Shown in pieces: positions 1,700 through 38,366 of a stretch of DNA of 55,105 bases (the first letter of the stretch is position 1; every line of letters begins with the position of its first letter). Under the pieces are notes generated by a model, which worked only from the letters and a program-made list of their open reading frames with translations, was not told the DNA's origin and did no database searches. The stretch comes from a virus, in UHGV virus genome UHGV-0308106; one strand, given 5' to 3'. Both the position numbers and the translations under genes were made by a program.

Positions 1700-1938
1700 T
1701 TTATCTTCTTTTTATCCTCCCACTCTTTGATTGACTCAGAGCGCCAGCGGTTAGGGTTGCCGGGCCAGTCAGGGGGTGGGAACGGGCATACGAAGCCCCG
1801 AGGCATTGTGTCTGCACTTTGCCATGACCAAAGGGTTTTGCGTGAAATTTTGTAGCGACTGGTCAGGTCTGACGTTACCAAAATATCATCCATAGCTCTC
1901 TCCAGTTGCCCGTTCGGGCCATTCAAAATCTTTTTCAA
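1696..1938 (-). CDS. small DNA-binding protein, excisionase/AlpA-like
   Basis: 80-aa ORF convergent on integrase stop (4-bp overlap); HTH-like [10 protein letters not shown] segment; position typical of xis. Confidence 0.45.
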
Positions 1939-2177
1939 CCAACCTGCCCGGGCAGGGAGCGGAGACGGCGCATGCCGGTCATCGCTGTGGCCACGTAGCT
2001 CGCCTTTCGGTTCACCACCTCCACCCAGACTTTCACGCCTTCAACCTTCACCGTATAAGTCTCTTTCATCTTGCTTCGCCCATAGTCGCCATATGTTTGC
2101 AAGTGAGCTGCCAGCGCGATGTCGCATGCTTGGCGAGCTAAAGGTGATTGCTTACTTCCTCGATTGATCAGTCGCAT
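1935..2177 (-). CDS. hypothetical small phage protein
   Basis: 80-aa ORF, 4-bp overlap with downstream gene, same leftward operon as recombination genes. Confidence 0.35.
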   Translation of the reverse strand: MRLINRGSKQSPLARQACDIALAAHLQTYGDYGRSKMKETYTVKVEGVKVWVEVVNRKASYVATAMTGMRRLRSLPGQVG

Positions 2178-2215
2178 ATAATCTCCTTGAGGGAGGGTTA
2201 CCCCTCCCGGTTTCG

Positions 2216-3334
2216 TCAGGCCACGTATTCCGGTTTCATATCCGCCAGGGTGATGCTGAATTGATCGTGCAGTTCATCGCCTAAGTGACGCTTTGAAGAT
2301 GCAAGCATGCGCTCGGCTTCAGCGAACCGTTCGGCTGCATGCGGCTCGTCGGGCTGGGGCAGGGATTTAATAGCCTCCTCAACCTTGTTGCGTGCATCCA
2401 CTAGGTAATAACGCTTTACGGCTTTGTTTTTCAGCTCGGTGAATAGTGCGGATCCCAGCGTAGCTTTCGCCGTTTCAATGTCGGCACGCAGCGATTTGGC
2501 GCTATCCACGTCCTGAGCAGATTCGATGCGTTCGCGGAAATCATCGGCAAGAGAGTCGACATTTACCGACGATTCCTGTGCGCTTTGCGTGGTTGTGACG
2601 GTGTCACCTGAGATATCAGCCAGGCTAACGCGTTGCGGCGTTGGGTTGATCTCTTTTTCTGTGCGCTGTTCAATCTCATCAGGGGTGTACACACCAAGAA
2701 CAACTGCAGGGCAATACAGGCGCGCCCAGTATTTGAGTGCCAGATAAGCGATCTGCTGTTTCGGGTTTGATACCCAAAGTGGAGAATTACGTGTGATTAC
2801 GCTGGAGAGGAAAACAGGCTCTCCCCAGGTGATATCACTTTCACCGCGAATAACGGCACCTACCCGTACCGACAGTCCTTGTTCATCAGCACTTTCCCAA
2901 CCGCGTACCATTTCTTTCTTGTCGTACGTCCCGCCACCTTTCGCAGGCTTTTTAACGGTTATCTCGCGGCTGCTGGCACATTTCGACCAGTCGCCCTCGT
3001 ACTCATAGTGAAAGCGGCCAACGATGGCGTTTGAGCTGGAGATCACCGCATTAACCAGTTGCGCTTCGTATCCCAGGACACCGTTAACCAGGTGCGTCTT
3101 TTGCGCCACGGCGTAAGGGTTCATACCCCACTGCATCGCCTGCATGATGATGGCCATGCAGTCTGCCGGATTGCCGCGGAGGTGCTCAGGCACCGTTACG
3201 GCTGCCTGTGCCATCAACCCGGCGACAGACTGAAGCTGGGTTAAAGCCTGCACGTTGAAAATGGCATTGCTGGCTGAGATCGTGTTTGGAGTCTGCTGTT
3301 CAGCGGTTACGATATTCGTGTTTTCCATCATCAT
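2216..3334 (-). CDS. single-strand annealing protein (Bet/RecT superfamily)
   Basis: 372-aa ORF immediately downstream of RecE-like gene; segment ADCMAIIMQAMQWGMNPY resembles the lambda Bet region DAQFIALLIVANQYGLNPW as recalled from memory. Confidence 0.65.
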   Translation of the reverse strand: MMMENTNIVTAEQQTPNTISASNAIFNVQALTQLQSVAGLMAQAAVTVPEHLRGNPADCMAIIMQAMQWGMNPYAVAQKTHLVNGVLGYEAQLVNAVISSSNAIVGRFHYEYEGDWSKCASSREITVKKPAKGGGTYDKKEMVRGWESADEQGLSVRVGAVIRGESDITWGEPVFLSSVITRNSPLWVSNPKQQIAYLALKYWARLYCPAVVLGVYTPDEIEQRTEKEINPTPQRVSLADISGDTVTTTQSAQESSVNVDSLADDFRERIESAQDVDSAKSLRADIETAKATLGSALFTELKNKAVKRYYLVDARNKVEEAIKSLPQPDEPHAAERFAEAERMLASSKRHLGDELHDQFSITLADMKPEYVA

Positions 3335-3339
3335 TCCCC

Positions 3340-6300
3340 TTATGCCTGAGTACGCAGCGCTTCAAGGCGGCGCAGGTCGAAGTCGTTCAGTTCGTCGGTG
3401 TAGTCAGCAGTGATTGGCGCTGGCCATTCACCTGTGTCGAATCCGGTTGCGATATTGCGCATCGCTTTGCGGTACTCGAGCATACCCAGCTCCAGTAGTT
3501 CAGCGGATGCCTCGATGATGGCGATCCAGTGGTAGTTCTCGTCTTTGTTGACGAAAATCCAGAAGAACTGATCCAGCGCTGCGGTTTCGCAGTACATAGC
3601 CGCGCTCAGGTGATAATCACGTTCAATAATTTCCCGGTGTAGCCTGGCGCGCAGGCTTTCCTGCTTAACATTCCACATGCTGATGGTTTTCAGGTCAGCA
3701 CCGATACGCACGCCGTCTAGGTCGATCTCAAGATCAGGGCGCACACGAACTTCCAGTCCCGTCTCCTCGTCAAAGCCAAAGTAGCTCACCTCAACGGCGC
3801 GGCTCGGGTGGGTTAGCAGCATGCCTGCGGTCGGGTGTGCCAGAAGCGCTTTTTGAATATTCAGCGCGGTGCTCAGCTGCTGGCGGGTGACCAGCACTTT
3901 TCCTTCCGGGTTATCGCGCCAGGCATCCAGCAGTTCGTCGGCAAATACGGCATCTGGTTTGACTGCCTTCACGGCCTGGATCATGTCTGCTTTGGTACCG
4001 GACACTTTCAGTGGTGCCGGTTTCTGTGCTTCCTGAGCCACAAGGTCAGGGTTGATGATTGCCAACTGCTCCAGCAGCGCGTCACGGCTGCCGCTGGTTT
4101 TAACCGGCGGCGGCAGGGTGGCGTTGTACTCTTTAATGCATGCCTTCATTGCCGTCGCCGTCTGCTTCTGGTCACCATCAATACGCTGGAAGTCAGCTGG
4201 CAGCGCCATATAGTTCTGTGCCGTTTCTTCCAGGTTAGCGCCAAGCGGAACCTGCGGCGGCAGGGTGGCGTTGTACTCTTCCAGTAACACCTTGATGTCG
4301 TCGGCAGACAGCAGCGCCGGCAGGCTGGCATTGTGCTCATCGATAAAGGCGCGCAGGGTCGCGGCCGTTGTGAATGCGCCTTCAGGGATCACCGGTTCAA
4401 CGCTGAATTCTGCGTCCAGTAGTTCAGGCTGCAACGCCAGCGCATGCACCAAGTTGCCCATGTCCAGCACCGCTGAGCGCTCTTTGACGATGGTTTTCTC
4501 TACGTGGCGCGCATTGAAGTACATCAGCGAAACGCGCGCATCTTTCACCTGGGTTGAGCTGATGCCGTTGGCGGCGTGGTAAACCTCGTTTGGCAGCCCT
4601 TCATAGCGGCCTGGCTCGAAATAAGCGGGATAAACAACAGCTGGTTCGTCAGATTGCGCTTCTGGCTCGGTTTGTGCTGCAACTGGTTCGGTTTGGCTTA
4701 CAGAATCGCTATTTTTGGCGACAGAATCCGTATTCTGGTTTACATCGTCCTTCTGGCTGGTATCTGACTCTTCACCAGACTCCAGACTGCTTTCGCCTGG
4801 CTGTACTTCATCACCAACATTTTTTTCATCACTGACAGTTTCTTGAACCTGCACATTGCTGGTGGTTTCCGTAGCCTGTTTCGTGCCATGAGTTGCTGAG
4901 TTCTGCAGTAAAGCCGTAACATCGAATATTCCGTTGCCGACATTTTTAACCAGTTCTTGTTCGGCTTTATGTGGTTGTGCTGTCGCTTCCTCTGCGCGGC
5001 GGCGTGCTTCTTCTTCACGTACGCGTTGCAGGTTCTCTTCGTGAGTGCAGAAGGATTTGCGCGGAGACTCCTTACCTTCAGGTTGGGGAATTTCCTGTGC
5101 TGCGGGTTCAGCCTCATGCAACGGCAATAACTCGACCGCGGAATTGAACGCGGCTGTCATGGTCTGGTTAACAAATTCCAGGTGAGCGACAGGAGTTAAA
5201 TGAATATTTTCCGGTGCGATACGTACCAGGTTAAAAATAGCCGTGCGGTTAACACCCAGAACGCCTGGCTGATTGCGCAGGATGTTGCTCCATGATTTCC
5301 ATGGTTCTTCTTTTTTGGTCACGATTTCTTTAGCGCGACGAAGAATGCTGCCCGGGATCTCGAAGTGGTTGAAGTCCATAGGCAGAAGGGCACATGCAAT
5401 CTCTAAATCGAGAGTGTCAAGGGTATGGTATGTATCAGGTCCACGGTCAGTGACGTAACCGCCGTTGGCATTGGTTCCGGAATCAGTACGCTGCACACTA
5501 CTGATGCGATTACCGGCGGCCCATTCGCGAACAAGGATACCGCGGTCGATGTGATCTGTAGCGAACCACAATTTCAAAAACTGGATTAAGGTTGCGAGTT
5601 CAGGGATTTTTCCATCGACAGGGAAGACTTTCTTAACGGCATTCACGACTTTATGAATATCGTGCTCAATGGCTTTTTTGAATGCTTCCACATTCTCAGC
5701 TGCCAGCAGCAGGTTCTGGACGTACGCGTCATCGGTGTCCATCTCAAGGCGGACAATCTCATTTTTCTGCCCTGCGTCGATGTGATAGAGATATTCACCA
5801 TCACCGATGAACTGAGCCAGTACGCGCTGGCGGAATGGCAGGGTGGCAACAACGATCAGGTTCGGTTGCTGTGTCTGCTGGGATTGCTCTTCGGTATCGA
5901 CTTCACCATCAACGACGCCACCTTCTGCCCGGCCGTTCTCGTCGGTCTGGATACCGTCCTCAACAGTGAGATCTTGACCAGTTGTAACGTCAGCAGCGTT
6001 GCTGGTTTCAGTTTTGAGCAACTGCAACTTACCACTGCGCCAGTCTTCTACCAGTTGATTGCGGTCACCGGCATCGGTGTTCACCCAGTCAGACATGAAT
6101 GCAGCGATCAATCTTGGTTCGTGCTCTTCGTCTGGTGTGAAAATGTCCTTAACCGCCCGAATCATTTTCCACTCAGCATTCAGGCTGAGTTTGGCGGTCG
6201 CGGGCACATCGTTCCTTGCCACAAGCAGGCTATGGAGATATGTATTGCCTTCATCCAGTGACATTTCGCTGGCAGCCAACTGCTGCTCTTTAGTGACGTG

Positions 6301-17838: not shown

Positions 17839-18452
17839 TGAACCAACAATTATTTCAAAAGGCGGCTGGTATCAGCGCCGGACTGGCTGTGCGCTGGTTT
17901 CAACCAGTAGATGCAGCGATGAAAGAATTCGGCATTACAGCACCCGCGGATCAGGCCATGTTCATCGCTCAGGTAGGTCATGAGTCTGGTGGCTTTAGCG
18001 CTGTAGTTGAAAATTTGAACTACACACCATCTGCGCTGGTGGCGACGTTCGGAAAGAGGATCACACAGCAGCAGGCTGATGCCCTTGGCAGAACATCCGG
18101 ACATGCAGCTCGTCAGGATGCTATTGCCAATCTGGTGTATAGCAACCGCCTGGGTAACAAAGCGCCCGGCGACGGCTGGAAATATCGCGGCAGAGGGTTA
18201 ATTCAAATCACTGGCCTCGACAATTATCGCACCTGCGGGGCTGCTCTGAAGTTAGATTTGGTGACTTCACCTGAACAACTGGAACAGGAACTACAGGCTG
18301 CGCGCTCAGCTGCATGGTTCTACACCTCTAAAGGCTGCATGATCTACGGTGCCGATATTAATCGTGTTACTCGCATCATTAACGGCGGTCTGAACGGTAT
18401 TGAGGATCGTAAGGTCCGATACAACAAGGCGCGGGCGGCGCTGCTGGTATGA
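17838..18452 (+). CDS. endolysin, glycoside hydrolase family 19 (chitinase-like)
   Basis: MFIAQVGHESGGF...YRGRGLIQITGLDNYR...INGGLNG motifs typical of GH19 phage lysozymes. Confidence 0.85.
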   Translation: MNQQLFQKAAGISAGLAVRWFQPVDAAMKEFGITAPADQAMFIAQVGHESGGFSAVVENLNYTPSALVATFGKRITQQQADALGRTSGHAARQDAIANLVYSNRLGNKAPGDGWKYRGRGLIQITGLDNYRTCGAALKLDLVTSPEQLEQELQAARSAAWFYTSKGCMIYGADINRVTRIINGGLNGIEDRKVRYNKARAALLV

Positions 18453-25619: not shown

Positions 25620-25833
25620 TCCAATGACTGCATATCTGTACCTTATGCAACTAATATCTATTAATCAGTGCGTTATCGTTCGGAATCATACTGCGTTACT
25701 GGCCTGAACCATAAAAATGACACTCCGAACATGTGCGGATTTATTCGCCGGATTTCGCTTTGATTCGGTACGTGAGGGACTAGAGCGAGAATCATGCGCC
25801 GTTTGCATTACATGGTAGCCAGAGAGGTGTTGA

Positions 25834-27063
25834 ATGATTGTTAGGCCACTAACTAACGTCGAAGTGAAAAGCGCGAAGGCACAGGGCAAGGATTTCAGTT
25901 TGCACGATGGTTTCGGTTTGTTGCTTTACATCACAAGCCGGGGCGGTAAGTCATGGCGTTTTCGGTATGTACACCCGGTAACGAAGAAGAGACAAACCTA
26001 TACCATTGGAAGATACCCGGAGTTTACTTTGTCCGAAGCGAGGGAGGAACGTTCGAAACTGCGCCGTATGGTAGCGCGGGGGATAGATCCGAACGAAGTC
26101 AAAAAAGATACCAGGAATGAACAGCGTAAAATGTACGCGCAGTCATTTCAGGCCGTTGCCGATGAATGGCTAAAAATCAAGATTAAAGAAGGTGCGAGAA
26201 GCAACACGCTTGAATCGCACAATGTGACGTTGAAGCATCTTTCCACGATTTTTAGGCATACCACAGTACATAAAATAAACGCAGCCGATACTATTCAGGC
26301 TTTTAAACCTTTCAGGGAAAGGCCATCAACGCTTACGAAAATGGTTATTACCATCAACGCCATAATGGATTATGCGGTAAATATTGGGGTTATTGAGCAC
26401 AACCCACTATCGAAAATTGGTAAAGCATTCCCGGCTGAAAAAAACGAACCAAGAGCGACTTTACAGAAAGAGCGGTTGCCAGAATTTTTAAGCGCATGGA
26501 ACGAGTTGAGCTTATGGGAGCCATCAAAGCTGGCATTATTATTTCAGATCATTACGATGGTCCGACCTTCGGAAGCTGGCGGCGCTCTCTGGAATGAGAT
26601 TGATTTTGATAATTCAATCTGGCAAATCCCTGCAAGCCGGATGAAAGGAAAGCGCCCCCACGTAGTCCCATTATCGAGCCAGGCTATAAACGTGCTTAAA
26701 GAGGCCGAAAAGTGGAAGCGCTGCGATTATGTTTTCCCCTCATGGCGAAAAGAAAATAAGCCGATCTCACGATGTGCGACTCAGGCCGGAATACACAAAA
26801 CGTCGTTTAAAGGAATGATTGTTCCTCATGGGTTCAGGGCGTTGGCATCTACAGTTTTAAATGACGAGGGGTTCAACCCTGATGTGATTGAGGCTGCACT
26901 CGCTCACAAAAGCGCCGATGCGATTCGAAATGTTTATAACCGTAGCGACTATCTGGAAAAACGCCGGGTTTTAATGCAATGGTGGGGGGACTTTATCGAG
27001 GCCGCAGAGCGTGGAGAGATACTGGAGACCAGCGGCGATAAGGGCTTAAGGCTGGTTGTGTAG
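25834..27063 (+). CDS. int: tyrosine integrase (P4-type) of nested element
   Basis: 409-aa ORF; N-terminal arm-binding-like GKSWRFRYV; catalytic domain (HGFRALAST, AALAHKSADAIRNVYNR). Confidence 0.85.
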   Translation: MIVRPLTNVEVKSAKAQGKDFSLHDGFGLLLYITSRGGKSWRFRYVHPVTKKRQTYTIGRYPEFTLSEAREERSKLRRMVARGIDPNEVKKDTRNEQRKMYAQSFQAVADEWLKIKIKEGARSNTLESHNVTLKHLSTIFRHTTVHKINAADTIQAFKPFRERPSTLTKMVITINAIMDYAVNIGVIEHNPLSKIGKAFPAEKNEPRATLQKERLPEFLSAWNELSLWEPSKLALLFQIITMVRPSEAGGALWNEIDFDNSIWQIPASRMKGKRPHVVPLSSQAINVLKEAEKWKRCDYVFPSWRKENKPISRCATQAGIHKTSFKGMIVPHGFRALASTVLNDEGFNPDVIEAALAHKSADAIRNVYNRSDYLEKRRVLMQWWGDFIEAAERGEILETSGDKGLRLVV

Positions 27064-27206: not shown

Positions 27207-27419
27207 ATGTCTATAAGTGGCGGTGATATTCTGCTAAAAGGTGAAGTGAAAGCGCGTTTACGTTATCGCTCAGACTCGTCATTCTACGAGTTTCTAAAAG
27301 ACGAGAAAAACGGCTTTCCAATGCCTTTTAAAGTCGGTGGGCGTAACTGCTGGTATGAAGATGAAGTAGATGCCTGGATAAGTAAACAAAGCGAGAAGCG
27401 CGGGATCTGCACATCATGA
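27207..27419 (+). CDS. AlpA-family transcriptional regulator
   Basis: 70-aa ORF; GGAGG SD; short HTH protein (FPMPFKVGGRNCWYEDEVDAWI) adjacent to integrase. Confidence 0.65.
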   Translation: MSISGGDILLKGEVKARLRYRSDSSFYEFLKDEKNGFPMPFKVGGRNCWYEDEVDAWISKQSEKRGICTS

Positions 27420-28552: not shown

Positions 28553-28713
28553 CAAATGTTCCCATTCCGGGGACACGGACGATTAGACAGGTGTTACAAA
28601 CGTTGGTGGTGAAATATCTTCTTGCGCTGGCGGGCACGGTGTGGTTATGATTATTTCGCACCTCACAAAACGGGTGCCGGGCGTGAGAACCCGGATAAGG
28701 TCAAAGGCGACAA

Positions 28714-28737
28714 CAGACGCCTATCGCGTCTTTTTTT
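28714..28737 (+). terminator. intrinsic terminator in leader upstream of icd-like gene
   Basis: agacgc-ctatc-gcgtct stem followed by tttttttt. Confidence 0.4.
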
Positions 28738-28931
28738 TGTCGCAATGTCAGTACCCCCATATGTAGCGGCGCAGATCCGCGCACAGAATCAATGGTGGCT
28801 CTGGCAGGGCAGCTTTCGGGCTGGCCGGTTCCCTTTGACGCCGGTATTCTCACCCCTGTCAGTGTCACCACCCTTTAGAGCGTGAGAACTCAGGTGGTGG
28901 CTCCTTAAATTAGTCAAAGGAGATCATCATC

Positions 28932-29129
28932 ATGATGACTATCCCTACCCTCGCTCAAACAAAATTCACCTGGCGCTTTCTCGCGCTGAATCGCCACGAT
29001 AAAAAAGCCAAACCTTGCCGTCTGTCCGTTGAGGCTGCGACCGAACGCGAAGCCCGCCGCATCCTTGCGCCGCACTTTATTTTGTCTCTGGCCGCACGTC
29101 TGCCAGTGCCGGAGGTGCGTCATGTTTAA
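28932..29129 (+). CDS. Icd-like small protein (P4 family)
   Basis: 65-aa; KFTWRFLALNRHD...RLSVEAATEREARRILAPHFILSLAARLP resembles Icd/Ash proteins as recalled. Confidence 0.45.
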   Translation: MMTIPTLAQTKFTWRFLALNRHDKKAKPCRLSVEAATEREARRILAPHFILSLAARLPVPEVRHV

Positions 29130-30000
29130 CCTCCAGACACTGACAGCTAAAGCCCGTGAGCTGCGCGGCAACGTCGTTAAAGCGGCGAGCACAAAGGGAA
29201 GTCGCACCATGACTCCTGTCTATGACCGTGACGAGCAGCGCAAGCTACGCGAGCGCATCCAGCAGACACAGCCCGATTGGGTGTTGCTCTGGTGGGATAT
29301 TGCGACCGTAACCGGCTGGCGTACCAGCGACGTTTGCAACCTGCGCTATTCCTGCGTCAATTGGGAAACGGGGCAGGCGACAATTATCGTTGCCAAGCAG
29401 ACCAAAGCCGCCGAAGCGCGGGCAACCCGCAAAGGTATTGAAATTGTGCGCCAGCAGCGCAAGGACGCCGCGCGGCTCGCCGCTGACCATATCGCCTACA
29501 TGAAGTGGGATAGTATCGGTTGTGACGAACTGGCCGCCGATATGAACGACGAGGAACAGGCGATTGTGTTCGGGCTGGTGGCAAAGGCTGACGTCAAGCA
29601 CGACACCAAACAGTTACCGCCCGGCATTATCAAGCGGCTGCGTGACCGTCAGGATCGGAATCTGGTGGAGGACGACCTGGTATTTTCACGCTCTCAAATC
29701 GAAAGTAACCGTTGTCAACGTCTGGAAGGTAGCGTTACTCGCCAAACCATCTGGCGCAAACTTCATGGCGTCATGGCGTGGTTTACCCGTTTCATTAACG
29801 CTAAATTGCGCCTGAGCGCGTACTCAAGCCGAAAAATAGCAGCCTTTAATCTTATGTCCGCAGGTGGCGAACAGGGATTATTGGTGGCTTCTGAAATGCT
29901 GGGGCATAGCAACCCGGCGATAACTCGCACTTACCTTCAATTAGGCAGCAAAGCCGCCGCTATCCAGTCCCGTTTAGCAATGGAGGTGTGCCATGCGTAA
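29122..30000 (+). CDS. tyrosine recombinase-like protein (catalytic domain only)
   Basis: 292-aa from ATG 29122 (GGAGG SD); WDIATVTGWRTSDVCNL and C-terminal LGHSNPAITRTYLQ; no N-terminal core-binding domain. Confidence 0.55.
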   Translation: MFNLQTLTAKARELRGNVVKAASTKGSRTMTPVYDRDEQRKLRERIQQTQPDWVLLWWDIATVTGWRTSDVCNLRYSCVNWETGQATIIVAKQTKAAEARATRKGIEIVRQQRKDAARLAADHIAYMKWDSIGCDELAADMNDEEQAIVFGLVAKADVKHDTKQLPPGIIKRLRDRQDRNLVEDDLVFSRSQIESNRCQRLEGSVTRQTIWRKLHGVMAWFTRFINAKLRLSAYSSRKIAAFNLMSAGGEQGLLVASEMLGHSNPAITRTYLQLGSKAAAIQSRLAMEVCHA

Positions 30001-30172: not shown

Positions 30173-30381
30173 GCAAAGTATCCCTGGCCGATTCAACCTG
30201 CCGTATCCAACAGGCGCAGGAAGTCCTGTCTCTCTGGCTTGAGGCGACGAATAAAAACGATAGCGGCACGGCTAAATTAATCGGCGCAATCATTTCCCTT
30301 CTGGATGGTATCCCCGAATTGATGGATTCAGTAGAGGATGAATTGGCTGGCATGGACTTAAAAGCGATGGATAAAGCATGA
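30169..30381 (+). CDS. hypothetical protein
   Basis: 70-aa ORF, ATGA coupling on both sides. Confidence 0.4.
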   Translation: MSKVSLADSTCRIQQAQEVLSLWLEATNKNDSGTAKLIGAIISLLDGIPELMDSVEDELAGMDLKAMDKA

Positions 30382-31004
30382 GCAACGTAGAGAAATTCAC
30401 ACCGGGAAATGCCGACTTATTACACGCCGAAGCCACACCGCACGGCGTAAACATCATGACCCGCAATGATGCCGGGATGTATGAGCATGTAGCCATTATC
30501 ACCTATGAGAGCGCTGTAAGCCGTCTGGATGCGGGAGAGTACGACGATACGCCAGATATCGGCTACGCCATTCATTTTGCCGTTGCTGATGGCGGGGCGC
30601 GTGGCTGGTTCGACTTTACCGCGCAGCATGAAGTAACCATGTGGCGCTGGCTGATTGCTGCGACGTTCGTTTCTGAGATGAAGCGCGAAAACGGCACAAC
30701 CTCCGTCACGGAGGCTGACGGCACAACATCGCAGGTGGCGATTTACTCCAATGGTAATGCGGGCATGGTGATTTACCCGTTTGCTGAACGGCTGGCGATG
30801 GCGAACAACATCGAGGGCGCAATGATTGAGCGATACGGCGTCGAACAGGGTACGGAAAAAGCCATTGTGTTTTATCAGGCCATGCTGGATACGGAGCGCG
30901 GCGAGCTTACCCCGTTCGGACGTGAAACGCTGGCAGAGCTACACGATCACTTCATTGCTGATCTGGATGAAAACGGCTGGCCTGAAATGCCAGCGGCGCA
31001 CTGA
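30378..31004 (+). CDS. hypothetical protein
   Basis: 208-aa ORF upstream of primase in same operon. Confidence 0.45.
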   Translation: MSNVEKFTPGNADLLHAEATPHGVNIMTRNDAGMYEHVAIITYESAVSRLDAGEYDDTPDIGYAIHFAVADGGARGWFDFTAQHEVTMWRWLIAATFVSEMKRENGTTSVTEADGTTSQVAIYSNGNAGMVIYPFAERLAMANNIEGAMIERYGVEQGTEKAIVFYQAMLDTERGELTPFGRETLAELHDHFIADLDENGWPEMPAAH

Positions 31005-31016
31005 GGGAGCGACACA

Positions 31017-33797
31017 ATGCGTAATATCGACCTTATCCGCGAAGTGACCAGCGCCGCAGCAGGGCGCTGGCCTTATGTGCTGGCTGGGTTGTCTATCGAC
31101 GTGCCTGATTCATCGCGCCGCCATTCTCCATGCCCTGCATGTGGTGGAAAAGACCGTTTCAGATTCGACGACAACGGGCGCGGTAGCTTTATCTGCAACC
31201 AGTGTGGCGCTGGTGACGGGCTGGATTTAATCAAGCGGGTTAACAACTGCGACACTACGGAGGCGGCACAGCTTGCCGCTGACGTGCTGGGTATTGATTA
31301 CCGGGCAGCGCAATCCGACCCGGTGGCAGCGAGCCATATAAGGGAGCAACTGGAAGCTGACCGCCAGCAGCGTGAGCAGGAGCGCCAGAAACAGGCAGCA
31401 GGGGACGCAGAGCAGCGAAGGGCTACGTTTGCCCGTCTGTATGCCGGAATGCGCCAGAGTGCCACACAGGGCGAATCTGATTACCTGCAATCAAAAGGGC
31501 TGACCGGGTTTAACTATCCGGTTATGCCTGATGGTTCGTTATTGCTGGAGCTGGTGGACGAATCCGGCGCAGTGGCAGCAGCGCAAACCATTACACCGCA
31601 GGGAGAGAAGCGACTCCTGACAGGTTCAGCAAAGCGCGGGGCATATCACGCCGTAAACGCGCCAGAATCGCCGCAGAGCGTTTTAATTGCCGAGGGGCTG
31701 GCGACGGCCCTTTCAGTTCACCTGATGCGCCCGGACGCGCTGGCAGTGGCAGCAATTGACGCGGGCAACCTGCTACCCGTTGCCGAAGTGATGCGCCGGA
31801 AGTACCCACAGGCACAAATCATCATTGCCGCAGATAACGACCAGATGGGCGAAAGTGACGGAATTAAAGGAGTGAAAGTTAACACTGGCAAGGAGGCCGC
31901 AGAGAAAGCCGCGAAAGCCGTTTCTGGCTGGGTTTCCATGCCACCAGTGGACTATAAAGCGGACTGGAACGACTACCACCAGCAATACGGCCTCGAAGCG
32001 GCCACAGCAGCATTTAACGACTCAATGTATCAACCGGAGGGTAAGAAAGTGGGTGCGACACTGACAGCTATCGACGGCGGCAAGAAAAAACTTGGTATCG
32101 ACGACGATCTGAAACCGCGAGTAGAGAGCCGTGCGGATGGCATTCACTGGATCACCCCGAAAGTGGACAAAGACACAGGAGAAATTATCAATACCGAGGC
32201 GTGGCTATGCTCTCCGCTGGAGATTGCTGGTGCGGGGAGTGATAACGCCAGACAGCGCTTTCTGATCCTGCGTTGGGACGTCCCCGGCAACCGGGGGCAA
32301 GTTACCCGTGCGCTTCCATGGGAGGACATTGGCGACCGTGAGGGATGGCGCACGCTGAAAAACGGCGGTGTCAGTGTGACAACCAAACCATCGTTGCGGG
32401 CAATTCTGGCCGACTGGCTGCAGCGAACTGGTAGCGGCAAGGAATGGCAGATCAGCCACACCACAGGCTGGCACAACGGGGCGTACATCATGCCGGATGG
32501 TGATGTTATTGGTGAGCCAGAGATACCGCTGTTATTCAGTGGTCGGAGTGCGGCGGCTGGTGGCTATACCGTCAGTGGAACGCCGGAAAGCTGGCGTGAT
32601 TCGGTGGCGCGTCTTGCGCTGGGAAACCCGTCAATGATGCTGGGCGTTGCTGCTGCGCTTTCTGCGCCGCTGATCGGGCTTGTTGGCGCTGACGGGTTCG
32701 GCGTGCATCTTTTCGAGCAGTCCAGCGCAGGGAAGACAACCACCGCCAACATTGCCAGCAGTTTATACGGTGAACCGGATGCCTTGCGCCTTACCTGGTA
32801 CGGTACAGCGCTGGGTATCGCCAACGAAGCGGAAGCGCATAACGACAGCCTGTTACCGCTGGATGAAGTGGGGCAGGGCAGTAGCGCCAAAGACGTTGCT
32901 ACGTCTGCTTACACGCTGTTTAACGGTGCCGGAAAGCTACAGGGGGCCAAGGAGGGCGGCAACCGTGAGTTAAAGCGCTGGCGCACCGTGGCGATCAGTA
33001 CCGGGGAAATGGACATTGAGACGTTTCTTTCTGCTGGTGGGCTGAAAGTTAAGGCCGGGCAACTGGTGCGATTGCTTAATTTACCGATGGAGAAATCAGT
33101 AACGCACCATGAGTACCAGAACGGGAAGCAACACGCCGACGCACTCAAAGAGGCTTACCAGACGAACCACGGAGCCGCAGGCCGTGAATGGATTAAATGG
33201 CTTGCAGGCCACCAGCAGGAGGCAAAACAAGCTGTCAGGGCGGCGCAAGAGCGCTGGCGCAGTCTTATCCCCGCTGATTATGGCGAACAGGTTCATCGTG
33301 TCGGTGAGCGGTTCGCCATTCTGGAGGCGGCGCTGGTGCTGGGGATGCCTGTCACTGGTTGGGGGGAGCAGGAAAGTCGGGACGCTATCCAGCATGGCTT
33401 TAATGCTTGGGTAAAAGAGTTTGGCACGGGGAACCGTGAGCATAAGCAGATCATCGAGCAGGCAGAGGCGTTTCTTAATGCCTACGGCATGAGCCGTTTC
33501 GCGCCGTTCCCGTATAGCCCGGCTGACATGCCGATCCGGGATTTAGCCGGATACCGTCAGAAAGGTGAGCATGACGAAAGCCCCGTAGTGTTCTACACCT
33601 TTCCGGCTGCGTTCGAAAAGGAGATAGCGCAGGGCTTTAATGCGAAACAGTTTGCCCGTGTGCTGGCCGGGGCTGGGGTACTGAAACCGCCAGCCAGCGG
33701 AAGGGGATATCAGCGTAAATCCCCGCGAATTGATGGACGCCAGATAAACGTTTATGTGCTCCAGCTACGACCCGACGAGATAGAGGGCGAAGAATAA
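31017..33797 (+). CDS. primase-helicase (P4 alpha-like)
   Basis: 926-aa; zinc ribbon CPACGG...CNQCG; TOPRIM-like AEGLATALSVH and IIAADNDQ; P-loop-like SSAGKTT. Confidence 0.9.
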   Translation: MRNIDLIREVTSAAAGRWPYVLAGLSIDVPDSSRRHSPCPACGGKDRFRFDDNGRGSFICNQCGAGDGLDLIKRVNNCDTTEAAQLAADVLGIDYRAAQSDPVAASHIREQLEADRQQREQERQKQAAGDAEQRRATFARLYAGMRQSATQGESDYLQSKGLTGFNYPVMPDGSLLLELVDESGAVAAAQTITPQGEKRLLTGSAKRGAYHAVNAPESPQSVLIAEGLATALSVHLMRPDALAVAAIDAGNLLPVAEVMRRKYPQAQIIIAADNDQMGESDGIKGVKVNTGKEAAEKAAKAVSGWVSMPPVDYKADWNDYHQQYGLEAATAAFNDSMYQPEGKKVGATLTAIDGGKKKLGIDDDLKPRVESRADGIHWITPKVDKDTGEIINTEAWLCSPLEIAGAGSDNARQRFLILRWDVPGNRGQVTRALPWEDIGDREGWRTLKNGGVSVTTKPSLRAILADWLQRTGSGKEWQISHTTGWHNGAYIMPDGDVIGEPEIPLLFSGRSAAAGGYTVSGTPESWRDSVARLALGNPSMMLGVAAALSAPLIGLVGADGFGVHLFEQSSAGKTTTANIASSLYGEPDALRLTWYGTALGIANEAEAHNDSLLPLDEVGQGSSAKDVATSAYTLFNGAGKLQGAKEGGNRELKRWRTVAISTGEMDIETFLSAGGLKVKAGQLVRLLNLPMEKSVTHHEYQNGKQHADALKEAYQTNHGAAGREWIKWLAGHQQEAKQAVRAAQERWRSLIPADYGEQVHRVGERFAILEAALVLGMPVTGWGEQESRDAIQHGFNAWVKEFGTGNREHKQIIEQAEAFLNAYGMSRFAPFPYSPADMPIRDLAGYRQKGEHDESPVVFYTFPAAFEKEIAQGFNAKQFARVLAGAGVLKPPASGRGYQRKSPRIDGRQINVYVLQLRPDEIEGEE

Positions 33798-33811
33798 AAC
33801 ACACATACGAG

Positions 33812-34104
33812 ATGTTTTTTTGTTGGTTCAGTTGGTTCAGTAACTATTTAATTAAGATAAGTATATGTATTTAATATATTTCTATACCCATAAGTGAACC
33901 AACACTGAACCAACAAATACCCATTTTGAACCAACAAATGCCGCTATTGAACCAACGCCCTTTTCTGGCTGGCCTGTAAATCTTTCCCACTGAACCAACA
34001 CGAAAATAGCGTTTGTTGGTTCAAAACAAGGCTTTGTTGGTTCACTCCTCAAGAAATAATCCTTACAAAACAACAATCTTTACAAATTGAACCAACTGAA
34101 CCAA
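33812..34104. repeat. iteron array / candidate origin of replication
   Basis: 12 copies of GAACCAAC in both orientations (e.g. 33812, 33821, 33886, 33897, 33918, 33939, 33982, 34005, 34026, 34079, 34088, 34097) flanking an AT-rich tract 33830-33880. Confidence 0.65.
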
Positions 34105-34397
34105 CTGAACCAACATGTTTTTGTTTATCTATAGAGTTTTTTCGGAGAGTAATTACGAATTTGGAGGGGCATCGCCTAAGCGACAGTATGCGGAAACGGC
34201 AACTTTGCGGAGCGGAAAAGAAAAAGCCCGCGCTGGAGAGGCGAGGGCTTTTGTTAACCATGTTTATGCAATCACACAATGGTGGATCACCGTCATAGTA
34301 CCACGTCGATTTATCATTTCAATGTACGCAATGATGTTTACTAATATTGCAATTTATGCAATGATCAGAATTTAAACAACGCAAAAGGTTATGAACA

Positions 34398-35315: not shown

Positions 35316-36383
35316 ATGTCATATAACTGGATGCGCCATTTCGAGCTACAGCTCATCGATGAGAATGGCAAAGGAATTAGCCTTAGTGATTTCAAAGTTA
35401 CCTTTGATATAGAGCGTAACGATAACAAATGGCCAGCTGTTGCGACGGTCAAGATCTACAACCTTTCACCAACTACTCAGAACCGTATTATGCAACGTGA
35501 GTTTGCCAAAATTGTGTTGATAGCGGGGTATGATGGTCGTGCGCAGGATGTAAGGGCAAGTGATGTGGGGATTGCACGTGAAATATCAGCAAGCGAAGTG
35601 GGCCAGGCTAACGGCGCAAACTACGGAGTCATTTTCAGCGGTGATATCCGCTTCACTGTGACCGGAAAAGATAACCCTGTCGATTCATGGGTACAGGTGC
35701 AGGCTTGTGACTCTGTGGAGGCGTTTACCAGCGCATTTATCAACACCACTATCAGCAAAGGCTACACCACAGAAGATATTTATGTTGAGCTTATGAAAAG
35801 GCTGGAACCTTACGGCATTTCTCGCGGTATTGTTCCTGAATTCCCGGCAACGGTATTTCCTCGCGGTCGAGCCCTCTTTGGCTATGTCCATAACTATCTC
35901 GATGAAGTGGCCGCGCAGTGCAAAGCCACTTGGCAATTCAACTATGGAAAAGTCGATATTGTTCCCAGAGACAAGGCCACTCATGAAGCTGTGGTTCTCA
36001 ACGCTAATACCGGGCTTATCGGTATGCCTCAGCAGACCATCGGTGCGGGTGTGAATGTCAAATGCCTGATTAACTCACGGATTCACCTGAACGGGCTTAT
36101 CCAACTGGATCAGGCTTCGGTATATCGTAGCGCCTTATCTGCGGATCAAATTGCCCAAGCTGGTGGGCCAATTTCGGTGGAAAGCCAAAACGGAAACCTT
36201 GTCACTACTGGATTAACGCAGAGTCCGGCGAGCATTGCTACCGATGGTATCTATAAGGTTCGGTATATCAGTTACACGGGCGACACGCGCGGTCAAGCGT
36301 GGTATATGGATCTGGCGTGTGAGGCTCGCGGGAATTCTGATTTATTTTCAAGTTCATTTATGAATAAGCAGAGTGAAGAATGA
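35316..36383 (+). CDS. baseplate hub-like protein (paralog of 47472-48536)
   Basis: 355-aa; about 70 percent identical by eye to helper hub-like protein (MSYNWMRHFELQLID vs MSLNWMRHFELQLLD). Confidence 0.5.
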   Translation: MSYNWMRHFELQLIDENGKGISLSDFKVTFDIERNDNKWPAVATVKIYNLSPTTQNRIMQREFAKIVLIAGYDGRAQDVRASDVGIAREISASEVGQANGANYGVIFSGDIRFTVTGKDNPVDSWVQVQACDSVEAFTSAFINTTISKGYTTEDIYVELMKRLEPYGISRGIVPEFPATVFPRGRALFGYVHNYLDEVAAQCKATWQFNYGKVDIVPRDKATHEAVVLNANTGLIGMPQQTIGAGVNVKCLINSRIHLNGLIQLDQASVYRSALSADQIAQAGGPISVESQNGNLVTTGLTQSPASIATDGIYKVRYISYTGDTRGQAWYMDLACEARGNSDLFSSSFMNKQSEE

Positions 36384-36724
36384 AGAAGATTATTTTACTG
36401 ATTGGTTTATTGGGCGCATCTGGAAGTCATGCTGCGCAGGTTATTACCATGCAGTGCGGAAACTTTCGCTTTGAGATGATAGAAAACTCGATGGCGAGAA
36501 TTAATGGTGAGTATGTAACATCTCAGAAAATTACAGAGTTCGGACAGAACGGGGCAAAAGTAGAAATGACGCTTATGCCTGCCAGCGATGGGAATCTGTA
36601 TGGGTTTGAATACATCCATCCTGACGGTAGCAAAAAGCGCTGGCTGAATGTTGAGCTTATCCGCACCAATATGAATCAGGCGCGGATCATTGGCTCGTTT
36701 GATTGTAAGCGCGTGAAGGGGTAA
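36380..36724 (+). CDS. secreted small protein (paralog of 48549-48893)
   Basis: 114-aa; signal peptide MKKIILLIGLLGASGSHA; two Cys; shared C-terminal DCRKVK. Confidence 0.5.
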   Translation: MKKIILLIGLLGASGSHAAQVITMQCGNFRFEMIENSMARINGEYVTSQKITEFGQNGAKVEMTLMPASDGNLYGFEYIHPDGSKKRWLNVELIRTNMNQARIIGSFDCKRVKG

Positions 36725-36732
36725 GGGGAATC

Positions 36733-37395
36733 ATGCCATTCATTCGACCCGCAAATGAGCAGGATGTAACACAGCTTGTTCAGGACAATGCTAAAGCATC
36801 TGTAACCAATGCGTTACCTGGCATTATTCGTTCGTTCGATCCCGAAACTGTCACCTGCGATGTTGATATAGCCATTACGGCAAGAATGACGAAGGCTGGC
36901 ACAATGGGTGAAGATTTCCAGTATGAGTCCGTCCGCTATCCGATTCTTAACGATTTGCCTGTGGTTTTTCCGCGCGGGGGCGGAGTTACGCTTACTTTCC
37001 CGGTTAAAGATGGTGATGAATGCCTCATCGTATTCTCTTCGCGTTCGATTGATTTCTGGTGGCAGAACGGCGGTGTGCAGGAGCGAGCTGATGGGCGTAT
37101 TTTAGATCTGTCTGATGCGTTCGTTATTCCTGGCCCCCAATCACAGGTAAAGAAGATATCCAATATCAGTACCAACGCTGCGCAGCTGCGTACAGATGAT
37201 GGAGCGGCATTTGTAGAGGTGTCCGCTGGTGGAGCCATTACTATTACCAGCTCTCAAATCACCCTTAACGGGCCCGTGCAGGTAAACGGAACGATCACTT
37301 CCACTGGCGACCAAACGGCCAACGGTATCAGCCAGATTAACCATACCCACGGCGGCGTACAATCAGGCGGCAGCAACACAGGAAAACCACAATGA
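36733..37395 (+). CDS. baseplate spike protein gpV-like (paralog of 49430-50170)
   Basis: 220-aa; PGIIRSFDPETVTC, FPRGGG, C-terminal HTHGGVQSGG; about 65 percent identical to helper gpV. Confidence 0.7.
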   Translation: MPFIRPANEQDVTQLVQDNAKASVTNALPGIIRSFDPETVTCDVDIAITARMTKAGTMGEDFQYESVRYPILNDLPVVFPRGGGVTLTFPVKDGDECLIVFSSRSIDFWWQNGGVQERADGRILDLSDAFVIPGPQSQVKKISNISTNAAQLRTDDGAAFVEVSAGGAITITSSQITLNGPVQVNGTITSTGDQTANGISQINHTHGGVQSGGSNTGKPQ

Positions 37396-37661: not shown

Positions 37662-38135
37662 ATGGCGGCATTACCAACAATGGCTAAGGTTATGATTATT
37701 CAATCATTAGCTTGCTACGAACCCCCTTCCAGAATCGTTGAGCTTGTAAAACAAGATTTTGGCATCGTCGTTACCCGGCAGCAGATATCGGCCTACAACC
37801 CTGAAAATACAATGGCAAAAAATCTTAGCCAAAAATGGGTAGAACTCTTTAATCACACTCGCGCCCGCTTCCAGAGTGAAATATCCGAGATCCCTATCGC
37901 TAACAAAGCGTACCGGCTGCGTATGCTCGATCGCATGGCTAACCGTGCAGAGGCAATCAAGAATTACGCATTAACAGCGCAGCTTATTGAACAGGCCGCG
38001 AAAGAGTGCGGGGACGCTTACACCAACAAATTAAAGGTTGAAACAACGGGTAAAGATGGTGGTCCGATCAGAACGGAAACAACGAACTTAACCGCCGAAG
38101 AAGCCGGGGAGGCATACCGCAAATTTATGGGATAA
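37662..38135 (+). CDS. small terminase paralog (orphan)
   Basis: 157-aa; same length as 19876-20349 product, C-terminal half nearly identical; no large terminase or portal follows. Confidence 0.5.
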   Translation: MAALPTMAKVMIIQSLACYEPPSRIVELVKQDFGIVVTRQQISAYNPENTMAKNLSQKWVELFNHTRARFQSEISEIPIANKAYRLRMLDRMANRAEAIKNYALTAQLIEQAAKECGDAYTNKLKVETTGKDGGPIRTETTNLTAEEAGEAYRKFMG

Positions 38136-38366
38136 CCACCAGCGCCGTGACACGTCACACGCAAAAATAGCACCGCCCATTAATGGGCTGGTGGCACAGC
38201 TTGCATATTGAAATTCCCTGTAAATCTTACAGATCTGGTATTGAGTAACTTACCCCATTCAGCGCCATACATCACAGAGCAGCCTATGGACTACACACAA
38301 AATCAGGCTGCAAATAAATCCTTATATTTCAGTTGATTAAATAATAGCCTTGCATTCCTGTACCGG

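Follow-up and report, generated by a model that had tools for sequence, protein, structure and literature searches.

What is the function of the dense block of short repeats that follows the primase-helicase gene in the viral genome UHGV-0308106? The DNA analysed (hereafter the window) comprises 55,105 bp, and the block lies just downstream of pri-rep (31017..33797, + strand), the gene for a fused 926-aa primase-helicase (Pri-Rep). A sequence-only reading of the locus had proposed an origin recognised by an initiator that the element itself encodes. The analysis reported here leads to a similar view: by analogy with related replicons, the array at 33822-34114 is taken, with a probability of roughly 0.85, to be the vegetative replication origin of a phage-inducible chromosomal island (PICI), for which the fused Pri-Rep would be its own initiator. 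The array is of the known PICI/SaPI pri-rep-ori replicon type and not a new kind of system.

An exact search found the octamer GAACCAAC 13 times in the window, against 1.72 copies expected (SD 1.39), a count that none of 100 dinucleotide-preserving shuffles reached. Twelve of these 13 copies were packed into 293 bp (33822-34114), and all 12 array copies showed the extended form of the octamer, the 9-mer TGAACCAAC. The 13th GAACCAAC/TGAACCAAC copy, at 17840 in the phage part of the window, lies across the ATG of an unrelated phage ORF and was taken as a chance occurrence. The array starts 24 nt past the stop codon of pri-rep (33797) and occupies the first 317 bp of an intergenic gap of 600 bp (33798-34397). 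The earlier description (twelve octamer copies in both orientations, an AT-rich tract flanked by opposed copies, a position directly downstream of the primase-helicase gene) was therefore correct, since exact search, orientation, AT content and position after ORF 31017-33797 all agree with it. Its measures needed correction: the interval given, 33812-34104, was set ~10 nt too far to the left, so that the final copy falls outside it and the copy before that lacks its end base, and the proposed 300-bp non-coding region is indeed non-coding but not of that size. Three program-called ORFs overlap the array (33882-34076 and 34049-34279 on the minus strand, 34115-34375 on the plus strand); all were judged not to be conserved because relatives show indels that are not multiples of three, as well as unrelated spacers.

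The plan of the array, from left to right, is two reverse copies, an AT tract, five forward copies, two reverse copies, a spacer and three forward copies, with successive start-to-start distances of 9, 64, 11, 21, 21, 43, 24, 21, 52, 9 and 9 bp. The left iteron pair (33822..33839, - strand; starts at 33822 and 33831) consists of two tandem 9-bp copies, with the top-strand sequence GTTGGTTCA. Next comes a tract of 55 bp with 82% A+T (33840..33894), proposed as the DNA-unwinding element; the most AT-rich 50 bp of the whole 55 kb are found at 33837-33886 (86% A+T). The five forward iterons (33895..33999, + strand) start at 33895, 33906, 33927, 33948 and 33991, and their spacings of 11, 21, 21 and 43 bp correspond to ~1, 2, 2 and 4 helical turns, the 21-bp units being flanked by TTT/AAA. 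Two reverse iterons 21 bp apart (34015..34044, - strand; starts at 34015 and 34036) precede a second A/T-rich spacer (34045..34087; 43 bp, 73% A+T), after which the array closes with three forward iterons (34088..34114, + strand; starts at 34088, 34097 and 34106) arranged head-to-tail with a 9-bp period. This triple is the perfect inverted partner of the left pair, forming an inverted repeat with 21-nt arms that are 100% complementary. Neither a DnaA box (within one mismatch) nor an IHF consensus was found in the array, which fits a start of replication independent of the host initiator. A promoter and terminator scan of the array gave nothing above chance, no Rfam family was found within it, and a literature search for the octamer GAACCAAC returned unrelated matches only.

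The array belongs to an island of 12.7 kb delimited by two att cores, the junctions of which were mapped against the uninterrupted Citrobacter phage Omnitron with the sequence of Salmonella phage SEN34 alongside. The attL core TGCATATCTGTACC (25629..25642, + strand) marks the left end of the island, at the junction seen relative to uninterrupted phages, and the attR core TGCATTCCTGTACC (38351..38364, + strand) its right end. No flanking pair emerged when att sites were sought as direct repeats of 14 nt or more, because the two 14-bp cores differ at two positions. In a SEN34/Omnitron-like prophage, the island interrupts the small head gene situated directly ahead of the major capsid gene; it lies inside codons 3-7 of this head gene ('Gp24 cement'-like, a homologue of SEN34_6) and shares its orientation. 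As a result of the interruption, the head gene loses its first seven codons, and the remaining open frame starts at an internal ATG (38367). The same island-prophage composite was found in E. coli ABWA45.

All assigned island genes are on the + strand, in the order integrase, AlpA-like ORF, isrK/C4 RNAs, second recombinase-like ORF, 208-aa ORF, pri-rep with its putative origin, and baseplate-like genes. The integrase (25834-27063) matched phrog_1 (2e-67), while the match of the AlpA-like ORF (27207-27419) was weak (20.5 bits versus a Pfam cut-off of 21). Gram-negative PICIs are expected to measure 10-20 kb and to carry int, alpA, pri and ori, transcribed in one direction. The isrK RNA (28658-28736, + strand) and the C4 antisense RNA (28788-28875, + strand) scored 61.3 and 78.8 bits in Rfam, both above the gathering score; they are relatives of P4-type immunity RNAs and lie upstream of the replication module. 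The second tyrosine-recombinase-like ORF extends over 29029-30000, and its copy in ABWA45 is annotated as a 292-aa tyrosine recombinase. The late zone of the island (35316-37395, plus 37662-38135) contains a baseplate hub gene (phrog_196, 5e-82), a phrog_3443 gene and a baseplate-spike-like ORF of 220 aa. The helper prophage downstream has baseplate genes of its own, and those of the island look like captured helper late genes.

On its gene content and insertion, the island would be classed as a helper-embedded PICI, a configuration described by Tommasini, Mageeney and Williams (2023; PMC10111431), who reported 14 HE-PICI sites named after their lambda late-gene cognates. It resembles those elements in its succession of zones for integration, Bro-immunity RNA, replication and captured late genes. 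It differs from them in its helper, which is SEN34-like (Brunovirus) with a sheath-type tail and baseplate gene set, and in its insertion target, the 5′ end of the head gene named above.

The Pri-Rep protein carries a Zn-ribbon (aa 34-69), a Toprim domain (aa 222-325), a DUF927 domain (aa 375-653) and a C-terminal domain; its Pfam matches were DUF927 (7e-46), Zn_Ribbon_Prim (1e-15) and Toprim_3 (8e-14). The N-terminal 340 aa show 35% identity to the primase part of P4 alpha. The Walker A (SSAGKTT) and Walker B motifs, the Toprim DxD (AADND) and the Zn-binding CxxC pairs are all intact in the translation. No Pfam matches to the SF3 helicase domains D5_N, DUF5906 and Pox_D5 were obtained, the helicase part being DUF927. 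The best match among PDB sequences was 8tch, the Rep of SaPIbov1 (E 3.6e-15, over aa 425-823), followed by the SCCmec Cch helicase; in the literature, DUF927 proteins such as Cch are described as kin of SaPIbov1 Rep. More than 1,800 relatives were found for 'DUF927 domain-containing protein'. The C-terminal domain (aa 800-926; 33414..33794, + strand) is predicted to be a winged-helix DNA-binding domain and is the proposed iteron reader, with a putative recognition helix at ~aa 876-886 and a wing at ~aa 889-917. The winged-helix assignment comes from one good model of the domain, since an AlphaFold model of helicase plus C-terminal domain (aa 371-926), made from a shallow alignment, reached a pLDDT of 43 and was discarded, and a profile search of the C-terminal domain against PDB sequences gave only insignificant matches.

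Relatives of the replication module were drawn from E. coli genomes, one Klebsiella 'phage' record and 15 species-representative genomes, two of which (L017 and L019) were left out as they had no open frame. In all 18 Enterobacterales DUF927-type homologues an array lies immediately 3′ of rep, and in most of them it comprises 9-12 short repeats beginning ~20-30 nt past the stop codon. Most homologues also share the orientation plan, with the left pair at offsets of ~24/33 nt after the stop, followed by sets at 98/109/130/151/~190, ~215/238 and ~291/300/309; L013 and L018 have five copies only, without the distal sets. Twelve sites recur in the window, L001, L004, L010, L011, L015 and L016. The first AT tract varies in the 18 homologues from 44 to 65 bp and from 65 to 87% A+T, without conservation of its sequence. 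Among seven diverged GAACCAAC-type origins, iteron columns were 94.6% conserved and 74% invariant, compared with 62.9% and 7.7% for spacer columns, and the last 60 coding nt were 73.6% conserved. This alignment indicates that the iterons are under strong purifying selection.

When IMG/VR was scanned with the iteron doublet, at least 120 loci were retrieved. Among the matches listed, 55 had at least six copies in 400 bp, and 45 of these 55 are preceded by a Rep-tail homologue whose end lies 26-52 bp from the array. Against GenBank phages, the region gave no Megablast match; a search in distant mode gave Klebsiella phage P12620-1 as the sole match. The corresponding entry (L002; GenBank PQ569648) is a 106-kb record deposited as a phage genome, which at 100.7-101.1 kb holds a 711-aa DUF927 Rep and an TGAACCAAC origin with 11 copies. 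Either a satellite is embedded in this record, or a large phage or plasmid-prophage makes use of the replicon too.

An important feature of these relatives is that their iterons are not all alike. Six types were distinguished: GAACCAAC (the window and nine loci), GAACCACG (L010), TAACCCAC (L011 and L020), GGGACAAC (L013 and L016), TGGGATAA (L015 and L018) and GAACCGR (L014). The types track the last ~125 aa of Rep; they follow neither the helicase core nor the 208-aa gene upstream. When L011 and L020 were compared with the window Rep, the core was 97-99% identical while identity over the last 56 aa was 42-44%, and their iterons differ; conversely, L003 and L012, with 76-83% identity in the core and 66% in the tail, have the same iterons as the window. 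For L011, identity to the window protein amounts to 97% in the core taken as aa 551-650 and to 77-97% over the helicase part (aa 451-820). Over all pairs, mean tail identity was 78% for same-iteron and 53% for different-iteron pairs. The lowest tail identity of a same-iteron pair was reached by 9 of the 105 different-iteron pairs; for aa 371-800, the corresponding value was reached by 90 of 105. The differences fall in the putative recognition helix (GFNAKQFARV versus GFNHGQFARA or GFNKDAVAQV) and also cluster in the predicted wing (GRGYQRKSPRIDGRQINVYV versus other sequences). This co-variation argues for cognate specificity, whereby each Rep would recognise its own iterons, and the proposed iteron reader is the stretch of ~125 aa at the C-terminal end of the helicase half. 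This refines the earlier reading, which had named the primase as a candidate for binding the octamer: the part that recognises the iterons would not be the primase domain.

Gram-negative PICIs have been reported to carry two sets of iterons around an AT-rich region 3′ of pri-rep, and a pri-ori segment of EcCICFT073 maintains a plasmid (Fillol-Salom 2018; PMC6092414); neither the octamer nor the word 'iteron' was found in the supplements of that paper. The island appears to resemble EcCICFT073 in its single-direction order of int, alpA-like, Icd-like, pri-rep, origin and late genes, and it resembles it in having iterons around an AT-rich tract right after the rep stop codon. However, the EcCICFT073 protein is a 584-aa D5_N/DUF5906/Pox_D5 (SF3) protein without Pfam matches to Zn-ribbon or Toprim, in contrast to the DUF927 protein of the window, and its iterons are of the GTCTACC type instead of TGAACCAAC. 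Because both helicase and iterons differ, the window origin would represent another initiator-origin pair with the same architecture. The bipartite plan of the window array, with its second spacer and trailing triple repeat, is left unexplained by the published two-set model, as are three short motifs described below.

Judged by homology, the helicase and tail of the window protein are closer to SaPIbov1 Rep, which is described together with its origin by Ubeda 2007, as cited in PMC7581432 and PMC9371898. Several differences separate the two systems: the iterons of SaPIbov1 are 5-6 bp long and those of the window 9 bp (TGAACCAAC); SaPI primases are of the AEP type, whereas that of the window is a fused Zn-ribbon/Toprim, DnaG/P4-alpha-like primase; and the window element has a Gram-negative, enterobacterial host and an array whose conserved plan is bipartite, including a second spacer and a triple repeat at its end. 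Classical iteron plasmids (RepA/pi/TrfA) differ as well, having direct iterons of 17-22 bp, DnaA boxes beside them and an initiator without helicase, while the window array has a 9-bp core in two orientations, no DnaA box and an initiator with helicase and primase.

The likeness to P4 raises the question of whether the array could be a cis enhancer similar to P4 crr, bound by the initiator while the true origin lies elsewhere in the element. P4 crr consists of ten 8-bp type-1 repeats in both orientations, directly 3′ of alpha, and the P4 origin is 4.5 kb away. The window shares with P4 a homologous N-terminal primase domain (the 35% identity given above), 8-9-bp repeats in two orientations directly 3′ of the primase-helicase gene, an initiator that would read its iterons through the C-terminus, and the C4 and isrK RNAs of its island. 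However, P4 has an SF3 helicase, a separate ori and crr that are both needed in cis, and the iteron TGTTCACC, whereas the window has a DUF927 helicase with a C-terminal domain, both SaPIbov1-Rep-like, and a single array with its own AT tract. No second cluster exists in the 55 kb, the only other TGAACCAAC being the single copy at 17840, and the array holds the strongest AT tract of the window, a hallmark of the PICI/SaPI origin proper. An enhancer role in place of an origin is therefore considered very improbable.

Three motifs that do not depend on the iteron type accompany the array. A post-stop motif, CACACATACGAG (33800..33811, + strand; identified by eye), appears as ~yACAyrTGnGAG in relatives and, also by eye, is kept in loci with different iterons. 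The second spacer contains a duplicated motif (34059-34086) of the form ATCyTTACAAA, present as ATCCTTACAAA at 34059 and ATCTTTACAAA at 34076, which by eye is kept only in the GAACCACG locus and the majority of GAACCAAC-type loci; L003, L012 and the TAACCCAC-type loci lack it. The right-border motif GTTTTTGTTTATCTATAGAG (34117..34136, + strand; GTTTTGTwTATATAy in relatives) is kept, as judged by eye, across most iteron types. Since these motifs are kept across iteron types, a site for an additional factor, a priming site or a promoter is suggested; the right-border motif may supply the late genes with a -10-like promoter element or belong to the origin.

The last of these motifs might favour a different function, in which the array serves mainly as a transcriptional operator for the late-zone genes or a small RNA, with replication secondary or absent. 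In most relatives the last iteron is directly adjoined by GTTTTGTTTATATAy, the core of which is TATA-like; genes begin 30-60 nt after the right-border motif in several loci, and a small RNA may be encoded between the array and the next gene. Nonetheless, a consensus promoter scan called none at the right-border motif, at the right edge of the array in the window, and twelve sites in two orientations around a tract of 82% A+T, following a helicase-initiator gene, make an origin layout that would be atypical for an operator. If the array does act as an operator, this would come on top of its role in replication, as it does in many iteron replicons, and a mainly transcriptional function is hardly likely. 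The candidate small RNA itself (~34205-34322, minus strand) lies between the putative origin and the next gene. It has a promoter-like site (34322-34295: TTGAAA, 16 nt, TACTAT, with a TG) and a two-hairpin fold (-25 kcal/mol, z -3.3) with a GC-rich end stem (34222-34252) and a U run. Its Rfam match to the OrzO-P antitoxin RNA was weak (34.9 bits, below the gathering score of 60), and the 282-bp segment was present in just 4 of 5,426 E. coli genomes.

The product of the 208-aa ORF (phrog_1515; 30378-31004, + strand), which the sequence-only reading had named as another candidate for binding the octamer, could in principle be the iteron-binding initiator in place of Pri-Rep, as its gene is immediately upstream of pri-rep and has no known function. 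Its presence is, however, uncoupled from the TGAACCAAC iterons. Its nearest homologue (93% identity) occurs in L005 together with ATCCCTAC iterons and a P4/D5-type helicase, while the protein is undetectable in L002, L004, L006, L007, L008 and L009, all of which have TGAACCAAC arrays; among the IMG/VR matches listed, the gene was near only 12 of the 55 arrays. The 208-aa gene instead travels with the N-terminal primase module, and its candidacy is extremely unlikely. Locus L005 (E. coli S43, NZ_CP010237), compared with window positions 30378-32030, has an N-terminal primase domain 90% identical in amino acids to that of the window, fused to a P4/D5-type SF3 helicase and followed by the ATCCCTAC array; domains D5_N, DUF5906 and Pox_D5 are present in both the L005 and the CFT073 proteins. 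Compared at the sequence level, L005 and the window would be products of module shuffling. In many E. coli genomes the match to the query was confined to its N-terminal-module part (positions 377-2033); its DUF927-tail-origin part (positions 1753-5001) was matched in few.

Short repeat arrays serve elsewhere as binding sites for the terminase small subunit or for centromere-binding proteins, but a packaging (pac/cos-like) or partition (centromere-like) site read by a helper terminase or a ParR-like protein is scarcely credible here, given that the repeat sequence co-varies with the Rep C-terminus, that the same array occurs in islands outside this helper (L003 and L004), that neither par genes nor terS were detected in the island and that the helper prophage has no such array. 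All four alternatives (P4-crr-like enhancer, operator array, 208-aa binder, pac/par site) were rejected in favour of an origin.

The interpretation as an origin draws on the anatomy of the repeats, the homology and fold of the protein, the purifying selection on the iterons and their co-variation with the C-terminal domain; the predictions of the earlier origin proposal hold at this level, for Rep homology, C-terminal domain, AT tract, iteron conservation and co-variation alike. Its function is carried over by analogy with SaPIbov1 only, since EcCICFT073, so far the sole Gram-negative PICI with a tested origin, uses another helicase family and other iterons. According to the model, for which binding, melting, self-loading and double-hexamer stoichiometry are taken from SaPI and PICI work, the winged-helix domain at the C-terminus of Rep would bind the 9-bp iterons TGAACCAAC, and the opposed iteron sets would position Rep oligomers so that they flank the 55-bp AT-rich tract; these oligomers are probably a pair of hexamers, the arrangement that has been proposed for SaPI Rep. 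The tract would then melt, and the DUF927 helicase would be self-loading, needing neither DnaA nor a loader; primers would come from the fused Zn-ribbon/Toprim domain.

That the recurrent number of 12 sites reflects a double hexamer is speculation. A broader proposal, in which a fixed 12-site scaffold is retained while iteron and ~125-aa winged-helix tail are swapped together, so that the origins provide a readable double-hexamer code and template and the border motifs form an extra origin component, is put forward tentatively and is rather doubtful.

With these results a function would be assigned both to a conspicuous block of non-coding repeats and to the so far uncharacterised tail of a DUF927 protein that is widespread. 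The array would also mark the module by which a satellite nested inside a prophage replicates. The tail/iteron pairs found across relatives would be ready natural specificity swaps for the study of self-loading helicase-initiators. If the broader proposal were true, and the 12 sites matched the 12 tails of a Rep double hexamer, the pairs would constitute a readable recognition code provided by nature, and the Enterobacterales DUF927 Pri-Rep family would offer a defined template for double-hexamer self-loading. The border motifs, being independent of the iteron type, would in that case mark one more component of the origin, for instance a site of priming or a promoter coupled to it.
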